Shown here: positions 1 through 49,610 of the stretch, piece after piece
How the letters are laid out: the number at the start of each line of letters is the position of its first letter
How positions within the stretch are numbered: the first letter of the stretch is position 1
Source: Escherichia coli
Lineage (GTDB): Bacteria; Pseudomonadota; Gammaproteobacteria; Enterobacterales; Enterobacteriaceae
Strand: one strand, 5' to 3'
DNA: 49,610 bases
NCBI GenBank assembly: GCA_036348995.1
Contig: GCA_036348995.1_4855.1
Program-made: the position numbers and the translations under genes
Notes under the pieces: generated by a model
Told to the model about the DNA's origin: nothing
Database searches by the model: none
The model's input: the letters and a program-made list of their open reading frames with translations, nothing else

Positions 1-127
1 CAAATATTCGGCGGGAAATGAATCAGCAAGCACCCATCCAAGATACACAGACATCGCCATTACCGGAATGAACACCAGAAACGCGACCATGCCAGTGCAA
101 GCGAAACCCAGCACATACATGATCATG
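1..127. repeat. terminal direct repeat, copy 1 (identical to 49484..49610)
   Basis: 127/127 nt identity between window start and end, read directly; implies circular or terminally redundant genome. Confidence 0.95.
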
Positions 128-9440: not shown

Positions 9441-9510
9441 TCTACGTCAATAAGTATTGACTAAATGATGTAGATTGGTCAACAATAATTTTCGAAAAGG
9501 AGTAGTAAAT

Positions 9511-10210: not shown

Positions 10211-10442
10211 CATTGATGTAGTTGAGACTGTTAAATACAACAAATACCTGCACGAGATTAAGCCCGGTGTATTTGTTGACGTGTATGATGTGCTCATGGC
10301 GTGGAATGTCACCAACCCAGCATTGCAGCATTTGGTCAAGAAGGCGTTGCAAGCTGGCGAGCGCGGACACAAATCACGCGAACAAGATTTACAGGACATC
10401 ATTGACAGCGCAATTCGCGCAAAAGAACTGGAGATTAAATAA
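10197..10442 (+). CDS. hypothetical protein
   Basis: ORF track. Confidence 0.4.
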   Translation: MNLNDIDVVETVKYNKYLHEIKPGVFVDVYDVLMAWNVTNPALQHLVKKALQAGERGHKSREQDLQDIIDSAIRAKELEIK

Positions 10443-17908: not shown

Positions 17909-18006
17909 AGTGATATCTCCGATAAGCCTGATGTAGATTATACTATGCGCTCGGTGTAGATTGGTCAAGTGTGGTGATGCGGATTTATCAACAACAATAA
18001 TAAATG

Positions 18007-18035
18007 TTGACGATGGCATGCTGGTGATGTAGATT
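18007..18035 (+). promoter_or_regulatory. sigma70-like promoter TTGACG-N17-TAGATT
   Basis: exact spacing; preceded by two more GTAGATT motif copies at 17929-17964. Confidence 0.55.
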
Positions 18036-24681: not shown

Positions 24682-24710
24682 AATCTACATCAGTTGTGAT
24701 TCTACGTCAA
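24682..24710 (-). promoter_or_regulatory. leftward early promoter TTGACG-N17-TAGATT
   Basis: on minus strand: TTGACG at 24705-24710, TAGATT at 24682-24687. Confidence 0.55.
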
Positions 24711-25547: not shown

Positions 25548-25970
25548 ATGAAGAAGTACTACATTGAGGTGGTTGGCGCTGGTGGTAAGAAAATGTATGT
25601 CTGCGGTCGCTATGGTTTTGTGCATGATTTTGCCTATGCAAGCCGCTTCAGGACAAAAGAAGAGGCTGAGAAGAATTTAGCTAAACGTAGAATGAGTCTT
25701 TCATACAAAATAAAATGTGATGAGCCACGAGTGAAAGAACTGGCTGTATCTGTACGTGAATCAAAGAGGACCATGGATGATGAGGCTCGCGGTTTCGTCT
25801 GGAGGCTTGGAGTTGGGCGTGGAAAGCATTTTGTTTTTGATGGATCTACCTTAATAAGTACGGCTAATCAGTTGCAAAAGGCTTTATACAGAGTTGGAAG
25901 GGAGTCAGAAAAAAAATTCAGTGTCAAGATGGTTACGCGCGATACTGCTTATGTGGAGAGAATTAAATGA
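25548..25970 (+). CDS. hypothetical early protein
   Basis: SD GGGGTGAG; ATGA overlap with primase. Confidence 0.45.
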   Translation: MKKYYIEVVGAGGKKMYVCGRYGFVHDFAYASRFRTKEEAEKNLAKRRMSLSYKIKCDEPRVKELAVSVRESKRTMDDEARGFVWRLGVGRGKHFVFDGSTLISTANQLQKALYRVGRESEKKFSVKMVTRDTAYVERIK

Positions 25971-28300
25971 TGATTGGTTATGAAGATTACCGTAGATGCA
26001 GCTTCCCTATTATCGACATTCATCCAATGGATGAGGAGCGCAACTGTACTTGTGGCGATCCGGAATGCAAGGCTGCGGGAAAACATCCGATTATGAGTAA
26101 CTGGCAGCTTGGTATCCAGTGGGATGATGAGCAGATTGAAAGCATGGCTAAGTATGGCAAGTTACAGTCATTCGGTGTTCTTGTGAATGGGTACCTTGTT
26201 GTTGATATTGACCCAAGAAATGGCGGTGATGATGGATATGAGGCGTTGTGTGATGCGTTAGATATTGAACTTGCTGATGAATCTGGTTTTACGGTTAAGA
26301 CTGGTGGCGGTGGTCGTCACATCTATTACAAACTTCCTGCTGGTGTGAAGTTGCGATCTCATGACAGGAGATTTAATGGCATTGACTTTAAATCATCTGG
26401 TTTCGTTATTGGCTGCGGCTCTTTCCATAAGTCAGGTAACTTTTATGAAGCTGAGCATGGTTCTCCTTCTGAGATAACTGAAGCTCCGTCTCAACTTATT
26501 GAACTTCTGCTTCGCCCTGAGAGAGCAGAAGATGAGGTTTTCTCGCTTGATAGTAAAAATTACAGCATTGCTGAAATGGAGGACATGCTCAGGTACATCA
26601 AGGATGGCGATGAGTACAATCCGTGGATAAATGTTGGGATGGCTATCCATGAAGCAACTGACGGTAATGGGTTTGACCTGTGGAACAACTGGTCATCACA
26701 GTTCAGCAAATACCGACCAGAAGAGATGGATGCCAAATGGCATTCCTTTGGTAAAGATGGAATTGACGACAAGATAACCGCAGGCACTCTTGTTTATCTG
26801 GCACAAGAGGGCGGATGGGTAAGGCAAGTAACTTTTGAGGCTACGCCAGAGGAAATTGAGAAACTTGAGTCTTTCGAGCGGGAAATGGCAATGGGTGTTG
26901 GTGAATGCCCTGTAGAGTACAAAAGCGTTGATGTCCGTTATCCGCCGGGTTTTGTTGGTCGCCTTGCTGCATGGATTAATAAGAACTGTGCAGAGAAGCG
27001 CGAGAATATTGCAGCACTTGCCGCACTACATGCCGCATCCATGATTTGCGGAGCGTCATCTGATATTTACCTTACAAACAGGAAGGCTTTACCAAATCTT
27101 TTTGCTGTTGGCATTGCGGGTTCCGGTTCAGGTAAAGGTGATGTTCTTGCAGCACTACAAAAGATAATTGATTGCTCAGGATTGAGTAAGACTGTCGCCG
27201 GTAAGATACGTTCAGAGCGTGCGATATATGAAGGTCTGTGTGCTAACCAGATGTTTAATATCATCATGGATGAGATTGGGATAAAACTTGGGAGTGTTGT
27301 TGGTCAGAAAGTAAGCGAATACAACATGGCAACCGCTGGTGCGATCATGGAGGCTTACACGTCAGAAGTTCTTTATTGTGACCAGCGTGTTACTGAGGAT
27401 TTCATTAAGTCTTTCGAAAAGAGAAAGGCTATGCTGTTGATGGCTATTGAGGAAAATGAGATACAGGCAGACCCAGTTGACATTAAGTGTCAGTTTGATG
27501 ATGTGATAAACAGAATTGACGGAGCTATAAGGAATCCATTTTTTTCAATCTTTGGTGTGTCTACTGATGATCAGTTTAAGCGCCTTATTACTGAAGAAAA
27601 CATTAAGTCAGGTCTTATGGGGCGCGCAATGATTATGCAGGAGTTGCAGGAGATTGCTGACGAAAACGAAAGCGTCAACTACTGTGATCTACCTATGGAT
27701 ATGCAACTGACCATAAAAACAATAATAAATGGCGGAACGGCTGGGCACAAAAACTGGACAGATTCAATCATCAGCCAAAAAGAAAGAAGGATTATAAAAG
27801 CTACACCTGAAGTTTCTCAGCTCGCTAAGGAGTTCTTCTCATGGATTAAAACCGTTGCAAGAAAGCATGTAGAAAACGGTACTGGTTATCACCCATTGAT
27901 AAACAGATGTGCTGTTAAAGTTGCAAAGATTGCTGGAATTCTCGCGTGCGATACCGGCGTCATAACCATGGAGCACTTGCGATATGCAGTAGCATTAACA
28001 ATTAAATCAACAAGCGACCTGATGATGCGTGCTGACAGCATTGCCGGAGCGAAGTCTAAAGCTATGGAGGAAAGGGTTGAAGGCCTGTTCTCCATGGTTA
28101 AAGAACATGTGAAACGCGGAATGACTAAAACAGCAATGATTAAAGGGGTAGCAAAAGATGGTGGATATAAGCGCGCAGATGTCGAGAGGTGTGTGGATAA
28201 GTTGCTATCCGATGGGGTTATTTGCATTGATGAAAGCGCAAAAAGAACATCCAACAGAGCAGTTATTTACAAATTAACAAATGATGAGGTTGAAATATGA
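25967..28300 (+). CDS. DNA primase (PrimPol-type N-domain) with C-terminal P-loop domain
   Basis: VVDIDPRNGG, GGGGRHIYY, GSGSGKG. Confidence 0.75.
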   Translation: MMIGYEDYRRCSFPIIDIHPMDEERNCTCGDPECKAAGKHPIMSNWQLGIQWDDEQIESMAKYGKLQSFGVLVNGYLVVDIDPRNGGDDGYEALCDALDIELADESGFTVKTGGGGRHIYYKLPAGVKLRSHDRRFNGIDFKSSGFVIGCGSFHKSGNFYEAEHGSPSEITEAPSQLIELLLRPERAEDEVFSLDSKNYSIAEMEDMLRYIKDGDEYNPWINVGMAIHEATDGNGFDLWNNWSSQFSKYRPEEMDAKWHSFGKDGIDDKITAGTLVYLAQEGGWVRQVTFEATPEEIEKLESFEREMAMGVGECPVEYKSVDVRYPPGFVGRLAAWINKNCAEKRENIAALAALHAASMICGASSDIYLTNRKALPNLFAVGIAGSGSGKGDVLAALQKIIDCSGLSKTVAGKIRSERAIYEGLCANQMFNIIMDEIGIKLGSVVGQKVSEYNMATAGAIMEAYTSEVLYCDQRVTEDFIKSFEKRKAMLLMAIEENEIQADPVDIKCQFDDVINRIDGAIRNPFFSIFGVSTDDQFKRLITEENIKSGLMGRAMIMQELQEIADENESVNYCDLPMDMQLTIKTIINGGTAGHKNWTDSIISQKERRIIKATPEVSQLAKEFFSWIKTVARKHVENGTGYHPLINRCAVKVAKIAGILACDTGVITMEHLRYAVALTIKSTSDLMMRADSIAGAKSKAMEERVEGLFSMVKEHVKRGMTKTAMIKGVAKDGGYKRADVERCVDKLLSDGVICIDESAKRTSNRAVIYKLTNDEVEI

Positions 28301-28692
28301 TTAACTACAAGTTCATCGTAATGAAAGGATTGTTTGATTACTTTGAATCCGAAGACCCTGAAGGTGGTCATCACAACGCAATCTCTCTGATGACAGGTAA
28401 ACACCTGATGGAGGTTTACTACTGGAAGTTTCCCGTATTCCGTTGCAATATGGGAGTCTGCATTGATGATGACGTTTTGTTTTGCAGGATAAAATACAAA
28501 AACAATATTGGCATAGTAACAGCTGCATACAGGGATGTTGCAAAAAAATCAGGGAACTGGCATCCAAGCGAAGTATTCGCTGGTGACGCACTATTTAATT
28601 TCTGTAAGGCGTTTGGTGTTTTGTATGAGGATGTAAGCAAAGAGTATAGCGGAAGGCGTGAGAAAGATAGCTTAAGCTCAAAAGGAGCATAA
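28297..28692 (+). CDS. hypothetical protein
   Basis: ORF track. Confidence 0.4.
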   Translation: MINYKFIVMKGLFDYFESEDPEGGHHNAISLMTGKHLMEVYYWKFPVFRCNMGVCIDDDVLFCRIKYKNNIGIVTAAYRDVAKKSGNWHPSEVFAGDALFNFCKAFGVLYEDVSKEYSGRREKDSLSSKGA

Positions 28693-28695
28693 CAA

Positions 28696-28724
28696 AAAGC
28701 CCGCAAACGCGGGCTTTATTATTT
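28696..28724. terminator. bidirectional intrinsic terminator
   Basis: hairpin AAAGCCCGC-AAAC-GCGGGCTTT plus T-run. Confidence 0.7.
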
Positions 28725-28964
28725 AACAATCCATTTTGTAACAGCTGGCCTTAAATCTTCCTTTCTGAAAACTCCACCAGTAAGTTTCTCGGCATCAATT
28801 GCTGCTGTAGCGCTAATTCTTCCTCTTGACACCCACTGATTGACAGCCTGTTTTGACACACCAAGAAACCTTGCCAGTTGTGATTGCCCTCCAACATAAT
28901 CAATCAGCTCTGATAGCTTTGTCTGTTCCATTTCTCTTATCTGTTCTGCGATGCTTTTCATGTG
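28719..28964 (-). CDS. Cro/YdaS-like helix-turn-helix regulator
   Basis: QSQLARFLGVSKQAVNQWVSRGR; lone minus-strand gene inside replication island. Confidence 0.55.
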   Translation of the reverse strand, partial: HMKSIAEQIREMEQTKLSELIDYVGGQSQLARFLGVSKQAVNQWVSRGRISATAAIDAEKLTGGVFRKEDLRPAVTKWIVK

Positions 28965-29095
28965 TTTACCTCTGCTATCTGTATGCAGCAATAATGAACT
29001 CAAAAAAAATTTTCGTCAAGGTATTGCGTTTACCATCACGTTGACGTATCTTTAAGTCACACCAGCGATATGCTGAGTTAAATCGAGAGGACACT

Positions 29096-29938
29096 ATGAG
29101 CTTATCAATGATTCAAAAACCAAAACCGGCAGCACCAATCATAACATTGGTTGGTACTCCAGGTGTAGGCAAGACAACTCTTGCAGCGCTATTCCCAAGC
29201 CCAGTGTTTATTCAGGCTGAAGAGATCACTGGTGTTTTTGACGACTGGGATGATGAAAAGAAACCAGATTCATTTCCTGTACTGAAGCGAGCTGATGCTA
29301 AACGCAAAACAAGCACAAAGGATGATTTGCTGTCACAGCTACGCGCATTAATTACTGAGGAACATAATTACAAAACGCTTGTAATTGACTCAATCACAAG
29401 CCTGCATTCAATGTTTGAACATGAGGTTTGTGAAAATTACGGTGTTGACAACGTTGGTTCTGCGGCTGGCGGTTACAATAAAGGATATATTGTTGTTTCT
29501 GAAATGCACGCTGAAATAATAAATGCATGTAAGTATCTTCGCAAAGAAAAAGGGATGAGCATTATTTATCTTGCACACGCAGGTGTTAAAAAGATGAAGA
29601 ATCGCCCTGATGCTGATGAATACACCGTTTACACACTTGACATGCATGATGCTTCAGTTTCTGGTTATGTGAATCTTAGTGATGCTGTTATTTACATCAG
29701 AAATGAAGAGTTTGTGAAAGGGACTGAGACTGATAAGAAAGGGCAAGTCACTAAGTTTGGGAAGGTTGTTCAGACTGGTCAGCGAGTTCTTATCACCTCT
29801 GGTGACGGTCGGGTTGGGTATGTTAATGCAAAAAACAGATACAACCTTGAACCTGAAATTCCTTTTGAAAAAGGTGAGAACCCACTTTTGAGTGAGATTA
29901 AATATTATGCATCTATACGAGATAACCAAACAGCTTAA
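29096..29938 (+). CDS. Sak4-like RecA-fold ATPase (recombination)
   Basis: Walker A GTPGVGKTT; adjacent to SSB-like gene. Confidence 0.6.
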   Translation: MSLSMIQKPKPAAPIITLVGTPGVGKTTLAALFPSPVFIQAEEITGVFDDWDDEKKPDSFPVLKRADAKRKTSTKDDLLSQLRALITEEHNYKTLVIDSITSLHSMFEHEVCENYGVDNVGSAAGGYNKGYIVVSEMHAEIINACKYLRKEKGMSIIYLAHAGVKKMKNRPDADEYTVYTLDMHDASVSGYVNLSDAVIYIRNEEFVKGTETDKKGQVTKFGKVVQTGQRVLITSGDGRVGYVNAKNRYNLEPEIPFEKGENPLLSEIKYYASIRDNQTA

Positions 29939-30386
29939 TGAACTGCTGGCGATGGAGGATATTCCACGTGAGCAGATTGAAGATACCATCAATCTTATTG
30001 AAGAGGAGTTTGAAGGAAAGGCTGAAATGGTTGCTGCTTACATTCGTGAGCTTGAAGCTGATGAAGCTGGACTTAAATCCGAGATTGACCGTCTTTCTGA
30101 GCGTAAGCGTGTCTTAGTTGCGAAGATTGATAACCTTAAAGATTATCTTCGTCAAAACATGATGGCGTCAGGAAAGACAAATATCAAAGGTAAGTTGTTC
30201 AGTATCACTCTTGGCAAACCGTCACCAGTTCTTGATGTGTTTGTTCCTGTTGAACAGCTTCCTGAGCAGTACCGGGTTGTGAAAGTGTCGGCAGATAACG
30301 CAGCAATTAAAAATGCGATAAAAGCCGGGATTGAAATTAAGGGTTGTGCCATCACCGACGGCAAACCGAAACTGATCATCAAATAA
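29907..30386 (+). CDS. hypothetical protein (Gp157-like?)
   Basis: position between Sak4-like and SSB-like genes. Confidence 0.35.
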   Translation: MHLYEITKQLNELLAMEDIPREQIEDTINLIEEEFEGKAEMVAAYIRELEADEAGLKSEIDRLSERKRVLVAKIDNLKDYLRQNMMASGKTNIKGKLFSITLGKPSPVLDVFVPVEQLPEQYRVVKVSADNAAIKNAIKAGIEIKGCAITDGKPKLIIK

Positions 30387-30403
30387 ATCGAGAGGACACA
30401 AAA

Positions 30404-30925
30404 ATGGGTTTCTGGAATCTTTCTGACGGTAAAGCTGTTGAATCTAAATCTGAATTTGAACTTGGTGGTGGTTTTGAAGTAATTCCTGATGGTAGCCGTG
30501 TTCTTGCTGCCGTTGAAGAATGTAAAGACGACCAGTGGGAAGGTGAGCGATTCTTCAATCTTAAGTGGCGAATCCTTGAGGGTGAGTATAAAAATCGCAT
30601 CATCTTCCAGAAGCTGAAAGTATTTAGCTCAAAAGAAAAGCAGCGCGACAATGCTATCACTATGCTTGCAGCAATTGACACAAACGCCGGTGGTAAGCTG
30701 ATGGCATCAGGGAAAGAGCCGACTGATTTTGCTATTGCCAGCGCGCTTGCAAATCGCCCAATGATTCTTCTTCTGCGCGTTTGGGAGTCTGAGGATAAGC
30801 AAAAAACTGGTAACTATGTGGCTGGCGTTTTCAGTCGTCAACAGACAAAAGCAGCACCTGCTCCTAAGCAATCTGCACCGTCTAACGAGCCTCCGATGGA
30901 CTTTAGTGATGATGTGCCTTTTTAA
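30404..30925 (+). CDS. ssDNA-binding-like protein with SSB-type acidic C-terminal tip (PMDFSDDVPF)
   Basis: C-terminus matches E. coli SSB tip; N-terminal domain divergent. Confidence 0.6.
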   Translation: MGFWNLSDGKAVESKSEFELGGGFEVIPDGSRVLAAVEECKDDQWEGERFFNLKWRILEGEYKNRIIFQKLKVFSSKEKQRDNAITMLAAIDTNAGGKLMASGKEPTDFAIASALANRPMILLLRVWESEDKQKTGNYVAGVFSRQQTKAAPAPKQSAPSNEPPMDFSDDVPF

Positions 30926-30978
30926 TTTAGATTGGAATGACAGGGCCATTCGTGGCCCTTTTTATTCGAGAGGACACT

Positions 30979-32847
30979 ATGAAAGTACAGCTTAGAACAT
31001 ACCAACAAGAAGCTGTTGATTCTGTTATAGGTCATATTCGTTCAAGCGTTTCATCGTGCATGATCATCTTGCCTACAGGGTCTGGAAAAAGCGTTGTTGT
31101 TGCATCAATCGCCGATTGGGTATTTAAAAATACTGGAAAGCGCGTTCTGTGTGTTGCCCCAACAAGCGAGTTAGTTGTGCAAAACAGGCAGCGTTATCTT
31201 TCTCTGACAGGAGAACCAGCCAGCATGTTCAGTGCAAAGGCTGGACCAAAGAACCTGCGTCATCCGGTGGTGTTTGGTTCACCAGTTACAATCAAGAACT
31301 CAATAGAGATGTTTGGTGACAAGTATGGTGCTGTCATTATTGATGAGTGCGATGGAATAACACCAACCATTAAATTTATTATTAATGAAATGAAGCGTCG
31401 CAATCCAAAGCTGCGTGTTATTGGAATGACTGCTACGCCTTACCGCCTTGGAACTGGATACATCTACAAAGAGCACTACCTCGATGGTCCTACAGATGAA
31501 GAAACTGCCATTGACCCATATTATGATAAGGTTGTTTATGAGCTTGAGGCTAAATTCCTCATTGAAAACGGATACCTTACGCCGCCAGTTACAGAGCCTG
31601 TTGTTGATGAATATGATACGTCTTGTCTTGAAAAGGATAAGTTGGGTCGGTACACAACATCTTCAGTTGAAAAGGCGATGGTTGGCAAAGGAAGGAAGAC
31701 ATCACGTATTGTTGAAGATATTATCCGTCGCTCTGTTAATCGGCGCGGAACGATGATTTTTGCCAGTACTAAGAAACACGCTATGGAGATAATGGAGTCA
31801 CTTCCTCCCGGTTCTTATAGTTATGTTTTTGGTGATATGCCAACAGCAGATCGCAACAAGGCAATATCAGACTTCAAGGCACAAAAAGTTAAATACATCG
31901 TTAACCAGAATATCCTTACTGTAGGGGTGGATGTTCCTCATTGTGATCATATAGCAGTCATGAGAGCCACAGAATCACCAAGGCTCTACCAGCAAATAAT
32001 TGGCAGAGGGACGCGCCTTTATGAAGGCAAGGAAGATTTTCTTGTCAGCGATTACGCAGGCAACATTCAGCGCCACTTTTCTGAGACTGGGGACTTATTC
32101 ACTCCAGAAATAAAAGCAACAAGGAAAAAACCATCCGTGCCAATGGATGTTAAATGCCCTCTTTGTGGCTTTATTAATGAATTTGGTGTGCGTCCAAATC
32201 CTGAAAATCTTGAAGTTGACAAGGAAGGTTACTGGCTTGATTTGGCTGGTGACAGGGTGATGATTGATATTTTTGATAAATCAGGTGAAAAAATTGGAAG
32301 CAAGCCTATGCCTGCTCATTTTGGGAGGAGGTGTAAAAACTACGTTATGCACGGGCCATTAAGGGAAATGCACAGGTGTACTTATAAGTGGTCGGTGAAA
32401 GAGTGTCCTGATTGTGGATTTGAAAATGATATAGCGGCAAGAAACTGCACATCATGCGGTGCTGAAATCATTGACCCAAACCAAAAGCTAAAAGAAGAAG
32501 CTGACAGGCTTGATTCTTCTCCTTATGCAACAAAGCAATCAAGCGTAACCATGATGAACATCATGAAGCATTACGTTTCAAGTGGTGAAGATTTGGTGCA
32601 CGTAAAATTTGCTATTGACCAGAAGCCATTTTTTGTTAGCAAGTTCTACAACCCAAACTCTGAGAAGGAATGGATGAAGAAGGAGTGGGAAGAGTTTTGC
32701 GGGAAGTGCTTTGGTGAATCTGACATGTCAATTGAGGATGCAATAGCAAGAAGAGATGAAGCTGTCGCGCCATCAGTGATCATGTTCAGAAGAGACAAGG
32801 GTAGTAAATATTTCAACGTTAAAGGCATGTATTGGGGGGTATTATGA
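30979..32847 (+). CDS. SF2 DNA helicase with C-terminal zinc ribbons
   Basis: LPTGSGKS, DECD, TATP, QIIGRGTR; CPLCGF and CPDCGF. Confidence 0.85.
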   Translation: MKVQLRTYQQEAVDSVIGHIRSSVSSCMIILPTGSGKSVVVASIADWVFKNTGKRVLCVAPTSELVVQNRQRYLSLTGEPASMFSAKAGPKNLRHPVVFGSPVTIKNSIEMFGDKYGAVIIDECDGITPTIKFIINEMKRRNPKLRVIGMTATPYRLGTGYIYKEHYLDGPTDEETAIDPYYDKVVYELEAKFLIENGYLTPPVTEPVVDEYDTSCLEKDKLGRYTTSSVEKAMVGKGRKTSRIVEDIIRRSVNRRGTMIFASTKKHAMEIMESLPPGSYSYVFGDMPTADRNKAISDFKAQKVKYIVNQNILTVGVDVPHCDHIAVMRATESPRLYQQIIGRGTRLYEGKEDFLVSDYAGNIQRHFSETGDLFTPEIKATRKKPSVPMDVKCPLCGFINEFGVRPNPENLEVDKEGYWLDLAGDRVMIDIFDKSGEKIGSKPMPAHFGRRCKNYVMHGPLREMHRCTYKWSVKECPDCGFENDIAARNCTSCGAEIIDPNQKLKEEADRLDSSPYATKQSSVTMMNIMKHYVSSGEDLVHVKFAIDQKPFFVSKFYNPNSEKEWMKKEWEEFCGKCFGESDMSIEDAIARRDEAVAPSVIMFRRDKGSKYFNVKGMYWGVL

Positions 32848-33299
32848 TTTTTCCAGAAGGCGTTAAGGTATATGGTGATTTAGATTACAGAAACAAAAAG
32901 TGCCCGTCAGAAGATGCTGAGCTGGAGACTTTTGTTAATCAGATAAGGAGGCTATATCCTGACTTTGCAAGAGTTATGATTCATGTACCAAATGAAGGAA
33001 AGCGTAAAGGGTATGAAGTTGAAAACCTGAAGAAAAAAGGCGCGCTAAACTTCGGGGCGTCAGACATCATCATCATAGGAAAGCAATCATTCGTTATGGA
33101 GATGAAAAGAATGGATCATACTTTATCAAAATGGCAGCCCGGTCAAATGGCATACTTAAAGGCGGCAAAAGAATTAGACTCATTCGCGTGTGTATGCCTT
33201 GGTTGGGAGGCTGCAATGATGGCATTTAATGACTGGAGAGCAATAAATTACCCAAACTATAAAAAACCATCAGAGCCATTGATATTTGATGGTTTTTAG
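32844..33299 (+). CDS. VRR-NUC domain nuclease
   Basis: PD-(D/E)xK-like GASDIIII...FVMEMKR; ends at TAG 33297-33299. Confidence 0.7.
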   Translation: MIFPEGVKVYGDLDYRNKKCPSEDAELETFVNQIRRLYPDFARVMIHVPNEGKRKGYEVENLKKKGALNFGASDIIIIGKQSFVMEMKRMDHTLSKWQPGQMAYLKAAKELDSFACVCLGWEAAMMAFNDWRAINYPNYKKPSEPLIFDGF

Positions 33300-33416
33300 C
33301 AACCACGCCAGCAATCAGGGCAACAATCGCAACGGCAACAGCAGCCACAAAAACAACAAAGCCAACAAGGAGGAAATGAGCCTCCGATGGATTTCGATGA
33401 CGACATTCCGTTCTAA
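33300..33416 (+). other. in-frame post-amber extension encoding Q-rich linker plus E. coli-type SSB tip (MDFDDDIPF)
   Basis: same frame as VRR-NUC; AAGGAGG at 33367-33373 and ATG at 33387; stop TAA 33414-33416. Confidence 0.5.
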
Positions 33417-33425
33417 TGATAAAAA

Positions 33426-33465
33426 TAACCCCGCTTCGGCGGGGTTATTGTTAAATGGTTTTTAT
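33426..33465. terminator. bidirectional intrinsic terminator
   Basis: hairpin TAACCCCGC-TTCG-GCGGGGTTA with T-runs on both sides. Confidence 0.7.
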
Positions 33466-44411: not shown

Positions 44412-44440
44412 TTGACACCTGCAAGGCGGTGATGTAGATT
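44412..44440 (+). promoter_or_regulatory. sigma70-like promoter TTGACA-N17-TAGATT
   Basis: exact spacing; GGTGATGTAGATT block. Confidence 0.55.
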
Positions 44441-49192: not shown

Positions 49193-49609
49193 TTATAGAT
49201 TTGAATCAGCGAAAAAACAATGGCGACCACGCCAAGAATAATGTCCAATTTCGCCGCCCCATTTAAAAGTGATGGAAAGGATGAACAGATGGATGCCGAT
49301 AATAATAAATGCGTACTGCGCATGAAGCGGCGTTTCTACAGGCGTGATAAATTCCCATACGAATGACTCTATCGCAACCAGCCATTCGTAAAGGCTCATT
49401 GTCAGCACGCAGAGCGCCATCTTTGTACTTTTGCGCAGTGCAATAGCCGGGAACAACCAGACCATAGACTGCGCAAGGTAATACAAATATTCGGCGGGAA
49501 ATGAATCAGCAAGCACCCATCCAAGATACACAGACATCGCCATTACCGGAATGAACACCAGAAACGCGACCATGCCAGTGCAAGCGAAACCCAGCACATA
49601 CATGATCAT
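49193..49609 (-). CDS. multi-pass membrane protein, 5-prime end runs off the window into the terminal repeat
   Basis: 3-4 hydrophobic segments; in copy 1 an upstream in-frame ATG lies at 148-150. Confidence 0.4.
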   Translation of the reverse strand: MIMYVLGFACTGMVAFLVFIPVMAMSVYLGWVLADSFPAEYLYYLAQSMVWLFPAIALRKSTKMALCVLTMSLYEWLVAIESFVWEFITPVETPLHAQYAFIIIGIHLFILSITFKWGGEIGHYSWRGRHCFFADSNL

Positions 49610-49610
49610 G
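49484..49610. repeat. terminal direct repeat, copy 2 (identical to 1..127)
   Basis: exact 127-nt match to window start. Confidence 0.95.

Follow-up and report, generated by a model that had tools for sequence, protein, structure and literature searches.

Why do three separate genes of one phage operon begin directly behind the same short sequence? The question arises in a stretch of DNA of 49,610 bases filed under Escherichia coli (assembly GCA_036348995.1; the whole stretch is called the window here, and coordinates refer to it unless another genome is named), in which a 12-nt leader, TCGAGAGGACAC, precedes the genes for a Sak4-like single-stranded DNA (ssDNA)-annealing ATPase, an ssDNA-binding protein (SSB) and a superfamily 2 (SF2) helicase. 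Because its first 127 bases recur identically at 49484-49610, the window represents an entire phage genome in circularly closed form, of about 49,483 bp after closing. With about even confidence, and from sequence comparisons, we propose that the leader is a start-associated sequence specific to one phage clade and that it acts as a shared site of translation control on the mRNA.

A leader repeated at three start codons

The leader occurs in exactly three copies (29083-29094, 30388-30399 and 30966-30977), all on the + strand, and no further copy with 0 or 1 mismatch was found on either strand of the whole window. The gap to the ATG is 1 nt for sak4 (29096), 4 nt for ssb (30404) and 1 nt for the helicase gene (30979), which matches exactly the original prediction of an identical 12-nt element 1-4 nt before these starts. 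That prediction had further described the element as including the Shine-Dalgarno (SD) sequence and the three products as a Sak4-like ATPase, an SSB-like protein ending in PMDFSDDVPF and an SF2 helicase; GAGG in the leader indeed pairs with the 16S rRNA, and the identities of the proteins were borne out by Pfam and PHROG (scans of these two were used for all protein family calls, Rfam for RNA families). The 9-mer core, TCGAGAGGA, is present three times in the window, always within a leader, and also exactly three times in the complete genomes of Shigella phage Sf11 and of phage 6991. Identity extends to 16 nt between copies 1 and 2 (TAAATCGAGAGGACAC) and to 17 nt between copies 1 and 3 (TCGAGAGGACACTATGA). 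Only 6 of the 1378 pairs of initiation regions in the window genome share at least 10 nt, three of the six being the leader pairs, and the leader is absent from every other gene of this genome.

Repetition alone is weak evidence, as a 12-mer in at least three copies turned up somewhere in 47 of 200 dinucleotide-shuffled genomes, a result that would favour the chance repetition of a short word. The 11-mer AACCTTGCCAG, which occurs four times on one strand of the window (4395, 10732, 28867 and 47950, +), is probably such a chance repeat and served as a negative control for conservation: it is found once in Sf11 and is absent from 6991. The placement and conservation of the leader are not due to chance, because it stands at three starts of one operon and is present in every relative; with all copies at start codons of a single operon, conserved in 24 relatives, and the control repeat not conserved, we regard chance as refuted and give it virtually no weight.

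Shared words of similar length were seen in other initiation regions of the window. The genes at 386 and 12790 have GAGGTGATGAAG (12 nt) in common, a near-perfect complement of the anti-SD sequence, and the start of gp157 (29907) shares GAGATTAAATA (11 nt) with that of a 102-aa open reading frame (ORF) at 10442.

Conservation among the relatives

The relatives comprised 24 related genomes or contigs taken from GenBank phages and IMG/VR (labelled L001 for Sf11, L094 for 6991, L023 and so forth). Across the leader region the window agrees with Sf11 (Cedarrivervirus) at 95.7% of nucleotides; identity is 90-95% with Escherichia phage Sa179lw, Klebsiella phage YX3973 and Salmonella phage gmqsjt-1, and about 77% with a lineage of Klebsiella phages (RSU-F4K5, VLCpiS13b/c and 6991). 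The original prediction had turned to related phages as a check, with absence there as the finding that would speak against it; the leader was present in all of them. Neither before sak4 (17 distinct contexts) nor before ssb (9 contexts) does any of the 24 genomes or contigs depart from the core, TCGAGAGGA, and the third site, wherever this is present (10 contexts), keeps it as well, even though the coding DNA of the two lineages is only about 77% identical. Nothing varies at positions 1-4 and 9 and little at positions 10-11 (both differ in the ssb leader of contig L064), with slight variation over positions 10-12 (ACA[C/T], AAA, AAT), and the bases directly 5' of the leader vary freely (aaa/gat/tat/taa). 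In more than 60 instances from these 24 genomes or contigs, the leader always lies on the coding strand and 1-5 nt before an ATG.

How unusual this is can be read from a control comparison between the window and phage 6991, made over 20 nt before each of 41 orthologous start codons: of these 20 positions, the leaders agree at 15, 17 and 19, and most other intergenic ribosome-binding regions at only 3-10. A comparison by blocks with L023 gave 97.5% identity for the block holding copy 1, against 62% and 72% for its flanks. As a separate observation, the portal gene (window 16826, -; L094 4490) has 30 of 30 upstream nucleotides identical between the window and 6991, the two proteins being only 61% identical, and is thus a further case of exceptional conservation at an initiation region.

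Pairing with the ribosome, RNA structure and distribution

The leader pairs with the 16S rRNA's 3' end through GAGG only (4 pairs, -5.8 kcal/mol), which places its three genes at ranks 46-48 of 53. We therefore rejected the idea of a strong or optimal SD sequence, since few genes of this genome pair more weakly, and also that of a genome-wide ribosome-binding consensus, since other genes have GAGGT(G), AAGGAG or AGGAGG. The invariant bases outside GAGG (UCGA upstream and ACA downstream) have no pairing with the rRNA, which points to a reader other than the anti-SD sequence; that seven non-pairing bases are invariant (those at 10-11 nearly so) makes a sequence-specific reader likely. The constant use of the coding strand, the locked distance to the ATG, the embedded SD core and the reuse of the leader for a foreign ORF in Sa179lw together argue that it acts on the mRNA, at initiation. 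We infer the RNA level of action, the dosage logic set out below and the existence of a trans-acting reader; the sequence, position, copy number and conservation of the leader, its weak SD pairing, its lack of structure and the mosaic junctions are shown by the data.

No hairpin common to the three leaders was found, and they fold no better than shuffled sequences, except for the terminator before copy 3; for the ssb leader, z was -0.27 to -0.58 and a structured nucleation element of the gp32 type was absent. The leader regions gave no Rfam match, and their flanks have no inverted repeat in common, the only hairpins being a 4-bp stem in the 5' untranslated region (5'-UTR) and the terminator. 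A leader that is unstructured and belongs to no Rfam family suits an accessible linear site. Candidates that were tried and dropped include a genomic antisense partner (the complements found are only 8 nt long and lie within regions coded on the other strand) and a resemblance to T7-like promoters through CACTAT, rejected by eye as the upstream bases mismatch and copy 2 lacks CACTAT.

A portable, widespread leader was also rejected. An IMG/VR scan with the 16-mer TCGAGAGGACAYNATG returned 79 loci, of which 19 were members of the clade, and the remaining 60 were single-copy matches in unrelated contigs, by our own rough estimate not above what chance would yield for so short a pattern in so large a collection. 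Among 185,579 bacterial species genomes no prophage or intermediate relative was detected, the closest Sak4 being 52% identical. Contig L105 (IMGVR_UViG_3300020047_002981; Sak4 66% identical) carries GGAGCAAGCA before sak4, a 225-aa P-loop ORF and gp157; we did not accept it as evidence of a concerted change of the leader in a sister lineage, because the promoter-leader region is duplicated in inverted form and one site lies in coding sequence, and the contig may be chimeric.

The third copy and the ssb-helicase junction

Unlike the copies before sak4 and ssb, the third copy is facultative in the clade, and the junction between ssb and the helicase gene, a hotspot of insertion and recombination, takes at least seven forms. 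The order terminator, leader, helicase is found in the window, Sf11, YX3973, RSU-F4K5, 6991 and others. Sa179lw has the terminator and the leader, the latter 1 nt before an inserted, unrelated 62-aa ORF (its origin was sought and only weak matches, in JenP1-like phages, were found), and then the helicase gene behind another ribosome-binding site. In VLCpiS13b a gene for an HNH-type endonuclease (annotated 'endonuclease VII') lies upstream and the helicase leader is kept. The leader is replaced in gmqsjt-1, L025, L028 and L081, with a DUF3268 zinc-finger ORF; in L052, with a 259-aa ORF that has an HNH-like motif (seen by eye; no Pfam match); and in L064, where terminator and ribosome-binding site are both different. 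The helicase gene belongs to this hotspot of inserted and selfish genes too (stretches 3700-3980 in L005, 3690-4170 in L006, 3440-4030 in L007 and 3780-6683 in L004, and also in L052 and L081): a LAGLIDADG intein was located in the P-loop region of the helicase in YX3973 and L023.

L023 records one such exchange: through ssb its identity to the window is about 78%, and beginning with the helicase ATG it is 100%, the switch falling exactly between the leader (which carries the variants of the Klebsiella lineage) and the ATG. Two N-terminal alleles of the helicase (MKVQ and MKYT) stand behind the same leader. As the only invariant stretch in otherwise diverged intergenic DNA, the leader serves as a crossover point for the exchange or insertion of downstream genes. 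It also fixes the true start codons of sak4 and helicase and marks a junction that in relatives gains homing endonucleases or small accessory genes.

A proposed shared initiation region and its possible reader

If the leader controls translation, the following mechanism can be drawn from its position. In the mRNA its core reads 5'-UCGAGAGGACA-3', and it would form the ribosome-binding region of each cistron that initiates independently in the early operon sak4-gp157-ssb-(terminator)-helicase-nuclease, while the gp157 and nuclease-like cistrons, which overlap the preceding gene, would be translationally coupled. One and the same intrinsic initiation region would thereby serve the annealase, the SSB that partners it and usually the helicase; their relative output would be set by transcript level, with the terminator before copy 3 lowering the dosage of helicase and nuclease. 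The leader would at the same time expose its genes to one sequence-specific regulator, of phage or host origin, protein or RNA.

The original prediction had suggested a shared translational operator, or equalised translation of three replisome components. This interpretation is partly supported: the non-GAGG bases that rRNA pairing does not explain are what either an operator or a deliberately matched initiation region would lead one to expect; the set of three genes is not strict, the helicase copy being replaced in some relatives. Several further points weigh against a shared control site. The third copy is dispensable, as the helicase stands behind unrelated ribosome-binding sites in six relatives (gmqsjt-1, L025, L028, L052, L081 and L064), so that a strict three-gene regulon fails and the constant pair is sak4 and ssb. 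With only three copies there are no regulon-scale statistics, and since a single clade holds all the relatives, the independent history behind the invariance is limited. Distant Sak4-DUF669 modules (Pseudoalteromonas H103, Alcaligenes CASP1, phiHSIC, a Proteus phage, Brucella Tb and 74 metagenomic loci) lack a common leader and use ribosome-binding sites of an ordinary, unrelated kind. Moreover, no RNA-binding domain was detected in Pfam and PHROG scans of 17 window proteins, ten small early ones included, with many small ORFs unscanned.

It is possible, and we say so tentatively, that the 11-nt leader is the RNA operator of a dedicated sequence-specific translational regulator, encoded by phage or host, that co-regulates annealase, SSB and helicase. 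T4 offers a comparison in RegA, one trans-acting repressor that recognises short linear RNA sites at several early genes, including those for replication and recombination proteins; these sites are A/U-rich, degenerate and overlap the AUG. The likeness, by analogy only, is that several early initiation regions would fall under one linear site, whereas the leader is rich in purines, does not vary and precedes the AUG. A RegA-like protein was not found among the 17 scanned proteins (many small ORFs being unscanned) or in the annotations of Sf11 and 6991. Should such a regulator exist, these phages of E. coli, Shigella and Klebsiella would provide the first model accessible to genetics for the start-associated sequences (SAS) of mycobacteriophages, and the operon would join two unusual devices at the level of translation, the second being the extension with a host SSB tip across a stop codon that is described below.

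A reading without any dedicated reader, which we think unlikely though far from negligible, holds that a workable initiation region was copied during assembly of the operon and kept for expression or as homology for module exchange. The pairwise identity beyond 12 nt does suggest copying over convergence, the junction at copy 3 is a hotspot of gene swaps and insertions, the helicase functions with other ribosome-binding sites, and about one in ten unrelated Sak4 loci share some leader of at least 10 nt, mostly A-rich plus SD. Ordinary ribosome-binding regions, however, diverge almost completely between the lineages, while the seven non-pairing bases stay invariant at two or three sites each; and gene conversion does not maintain the identity, because position 12 varies without homogenisation among the copies. 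The SSB itself was the candidate of the original prediction, and ssDNA-binding proteins such as T4 gp32 and the M13 gene V protein are classic translational autoregulators. The DUF669 SSB would bind the leader on the ssb, sak4 and helicase mRNAs and repress their translation, so that an SSB and its partner replication genes would share initiation control through an unstructured leader, a copy of which ssb itself bears. We judge this improbable: SSBs have little sequence specificity and would not be expected to require an invariant 11-mer, gp32 autoregulation needs a pseudoknot and a long unstructured A/U-rich tract and neither exists at the leader (nor does a hairpin that could serve as nucleation site), and distant phages have the same Sak4-DUF669 pair without the leader. 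Autogenous control was thus not upheld, as nothing points to the SSB specifically and RNA structure of the T4 gene 32 type is lacking.

Little probability attaches, too, to a site in the DNA, an 11-bp operator or roadblock at which a phage DNA-binding protein would block transcription of the operon. A Cro/YdaS-like regulator is encoded next door, copy 1 covers about +24 to +35 when counted from the inferred start of transcription, and the sites are asymmetric, in a single orientation and in short intergenic gaps, as one might expect of a roadblock; but a DNA site has no rationale for a fixed distance of 1-5 nt to the ATG in every instance or for an embedded SD core, and dimers of helix-turn-helix (HTH) proteins normally need dyad symmetry, of which the leader has none. 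Cleavage of the RNA at the leader or immediately ahead of it, by an endoribonuclease of host or phage, giving uniform 5' ends or joint inactivation, has a very small chance in our view. T4 RegB cuts within early SD sequences at the motif GGAG, A/U-rich bases precede every copy of the leader (uaaa, auaa, uuau; compare RNase E), and the leader is single-stranded in the predicted folds; yet it contains no GGAG, no candidate nuclease gene was identified, and the A/U-rich flank is the variable part and not the invariant one.

Comparison with known systems

The closest known kind to the leader, taken as a shared control site, is the SAS of Cluster K mycobacteriophages, of which there are 11-19 copies spread over half a genome and whose function is unknown (Pope et al. 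2011, PMC3203893) and without experimental verification as of a 2025 survey. The SAS has the consensus GGGATAGGAGCCC with at most 2 deviations, about half of the sites having 17-bp imperfect inverted repeats upstream (termed ESAS); it combines an SD core with conserved bases that have no potential to pair with the 16S rRNA, and Pope et al. argued from these non-pairing bases as we do here (PMC3203893). Both are short asymmetric repeats in one orientation, a few nucleotides upstream of the ATG, with an SD core flanked by conserved non-pairing bases; both accompany non-structural genes only, are conserved across sub-lineages and sometimes stand before different gene families (here the 62-aa ORF of Sa179lw). 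The sequences themselves are unrelated (GGGATAGGAGCCC for the SAS against TCGAGAGGACA(C/T) for the leader), and the leader is therefore of the same kind and of another family. It also differs in having three copies in one operon instead of 11-19, in the lack of ESAS inverted repeats beside its copies, in its Gram-negative host and in a weak instead of a strong SD core. With only three copies, and natural replacements at one of them, the question raised by the SAS becomes directly testable in a tractable host.

The stoperators of mycobacteriophage L5 and Cluster A are asymmetric repressor sites in the DNA of about 13 bp, some 24-30 per genome, according to the account of them cited in PMC3203893. 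Like the leader they are asymmetric, lie in short intergenic gaps and are oriented with transcription, and, as described there, they have no fixed relation to start codons, whereas the three leader copies are all locked to them. In phage HK620, the DUF669 protein has been shown experimentally to be an SSB, Sak4 activity depends on this cognate SSB, and the last 6 residues of the SSB are needed for the stimulation of Sak4 (Hutinet et al. 2018, PMC5928155). This functional link between the products of the two genes that constantly bear the leader speaks for a shared control site. The window resembles HK620 in encoding together an AAA_24 Sak4-like protein and a DUF669 SSB with an acidic C-terminal tip, and differs in the gp157 gene between the two, in an SSB tip that is almost that of the host and in a second tip after the nuclease-like gene; a shared leader is not known from HK620.

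Anatomy of the operon

A Cro/YdaS-like HTH regulator (28719-28961, -; Pfam YdaS_toxin and P22_Cro, PHROG transcriptional repressor) is encoded divergently from the operon, and a phylogenetic footprint of the region between it and sak4 in 10 relatives pointed to two conserved back-to-back promoters. That of the regulator has a promoter-like site TTGACG-17-CATTAT (29019-28991, -), found by promoter scan and conserved in relatives. The inferred promoter of the operon (29024-29052, +) consists of TTGCGT (29024-29029), a 17-nt spacer and TATCTT (29047-29052); its pattern, TTG(C/A)..-N17-(C)GTATCTT, is kept in the 10 relatives while the flanks vary, and the consensus scan did not list it. Transcription would start near 29059, and the 5'-UTR would then include a hairpin, CAGC-loop-GCUG (29063-29075, +; centroid fold), whose stem is kept and whose loop varies among relatives, before leader copy 1.

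Behind copy 1 follow sak4 (29096-29938, +; 280 aa; Pfam AAA_24 5.8e-27, PHROG 124 3.8e-45) and, without a leader, the gene for a Siphovirus Gp157/Mu Gam-like protein (29907-30386, +; Pfam Sipho_Gp157 2.7e-38, PHROG 253), which starts inside the end of sak4 (32-nt overlap). Leader copy 2 comes 1 nt after the TAA that ends gp157 and precedes the gene for a DUF669-family SSB (30404-30925, +; 173 aa; Pfam DUF669 26 bits with a cut-off of 21, PHROG 9002 3.9e-69), the tail of which reads ...APSNEPPMDFSDDVPF and ends in PMDFSDDVPF. Between ssb and copy 3, directly ahead of the latter, lies a hairpin resembling an intrinsic terminator, AGGGCCATTCGTGGCCCT with a T-run (30942-30965, +; -23.2 kcal/mol, z = -2.3). 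Most relatives keep it, including ones without the leader; it may act as an attenuator. As no + strand promoter was found between this terminator and the helicase ATG, the helicase and nuclease-like genes would be expressed by read-through of the terminator. The SF2 helicase (30979-32847, +; 622 aa; Pfam ResIII and Helicase_C, PHROG 16 1.7e-87) is followed by the leaderless gene of a nuclease-like protein (32844-33299, +; 151 aa), whose ATG overlaps the helicase stop codon (ATGA). This protein belongs to PHROG 824, of unknown function, and had no Pfam match in the window; its counterparts in relatives are annotated as VRR-NUC or type III restriction endonuclease. A bidirectional terminator-like hairpin (33420-33453), found in the terminator and repeat scan, closes the operon.

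In the GenBank/RefSeq record of Sf11, the start of Sak4 is called at the second ATG (M5; L001 1909) and that of the helicase at an ATG further upstream, from which the frame runs across the terminator (L001 3738); the conserved leader indicates that the true starts are the equivalents of 29096 and 30979 in the window. Upstream of the operon, a PrimPol-type primase is encoded on the + strand of the window; in the Klebsiella lineage the primase gene lies on the opposite strand and shares a transcript with that of the Cro-like regulator. The module (25967-28961 in the window, 39563-42123 in L094) is therefore inverted between the lineages.

An SSB-tip extension behind the nuclease-like gene

Directly after the stop codon of the nuclease-like gene (TAG, 33297-33299), 38 codons continue in frame (33300-33416, +) and encode QPRQQSGQQSQRQQQPQKQQSQQGGNEPPMDFDDDIPF up to a further stop, with a Q-rich linker and a terminal NEPPMDFDDDIPF, which is identical to the C-terminal tip of E. 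coli SSB. No in-frame ATG, GTG or TTG precedes the M of PPMDF in this extension. All clade members that contain the region share this arrangement: in the E. coli-type lineage TAG (TAA in Sa179lw) is followed by the invariant codons caa cca cgc cag caa tca, and in the Klebsiella lineage TGA or TAA is followed at once by an ATG and an ORF of 22-24 codons with the same tip. The pooled ratio of non-synonymous to synonymous polymorphism (pN/pS) is 0.10 in this frame (0.11 for the linker and 0.09 for the tip), whereas the other frames give 2.6 and 2.5, and synonymous exchanges include Arg cgg/aga/cga and Gly ggg/gga/ggc. By this measure the extension is under strong purifying selection, which suggests that it is translated, by stop-codon read-through or by unconventional re-initiation, into a nuclease isoform or a peptide carrying the interaction tip of the host SSB.

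The DNA of the tip is 90-95% identical to the 3' end of the chromosomal ssb of E. coli. An uninterrupted fusion of nuclease and tip was not found among 5.8 billion proteins, nor did a literature search find a paper describing a nuclease-like gene with an SSB-tip extension; the only tRNA in the genome is a tRNA-Met. The tail of the DUF669 SSB (APSNEPPMDFSDDVPF; 30860-30925, +) is itself nearly that of the host SSB, and its DNA matches that of the second tip (33375-33417) at 74% over 43 nt, so that the operon has two host-like SSB tips. A sub-threshold Rfam match to RsmY, a small RNA that sequesters CsrA, spans extension and terminator (33332-33448, +; 29.4 bits against a gathering score of 57, E = 2.4e-4, full model length); it probably stems from GGA motifs and the terminator, because the selection at the protein level argues for a coding region.

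Other repeated words

Two promoter-like words recur elsewhere in the window. TTGACGTAGAT is found at 317, 2465 and 12729 (+) and at 9450 (-), and (G)TGATGTAGATT, which resembles an extended -10 element (TGnTAGATT), at 9466, 17929, 18025 and 44430 (+) and at 24692 (-). At 18004-18035 and 44412-44440 the latter follows TTGAC(G/A) by about 17 nt, and the two words probably represent a family of sigma-70 promoters.

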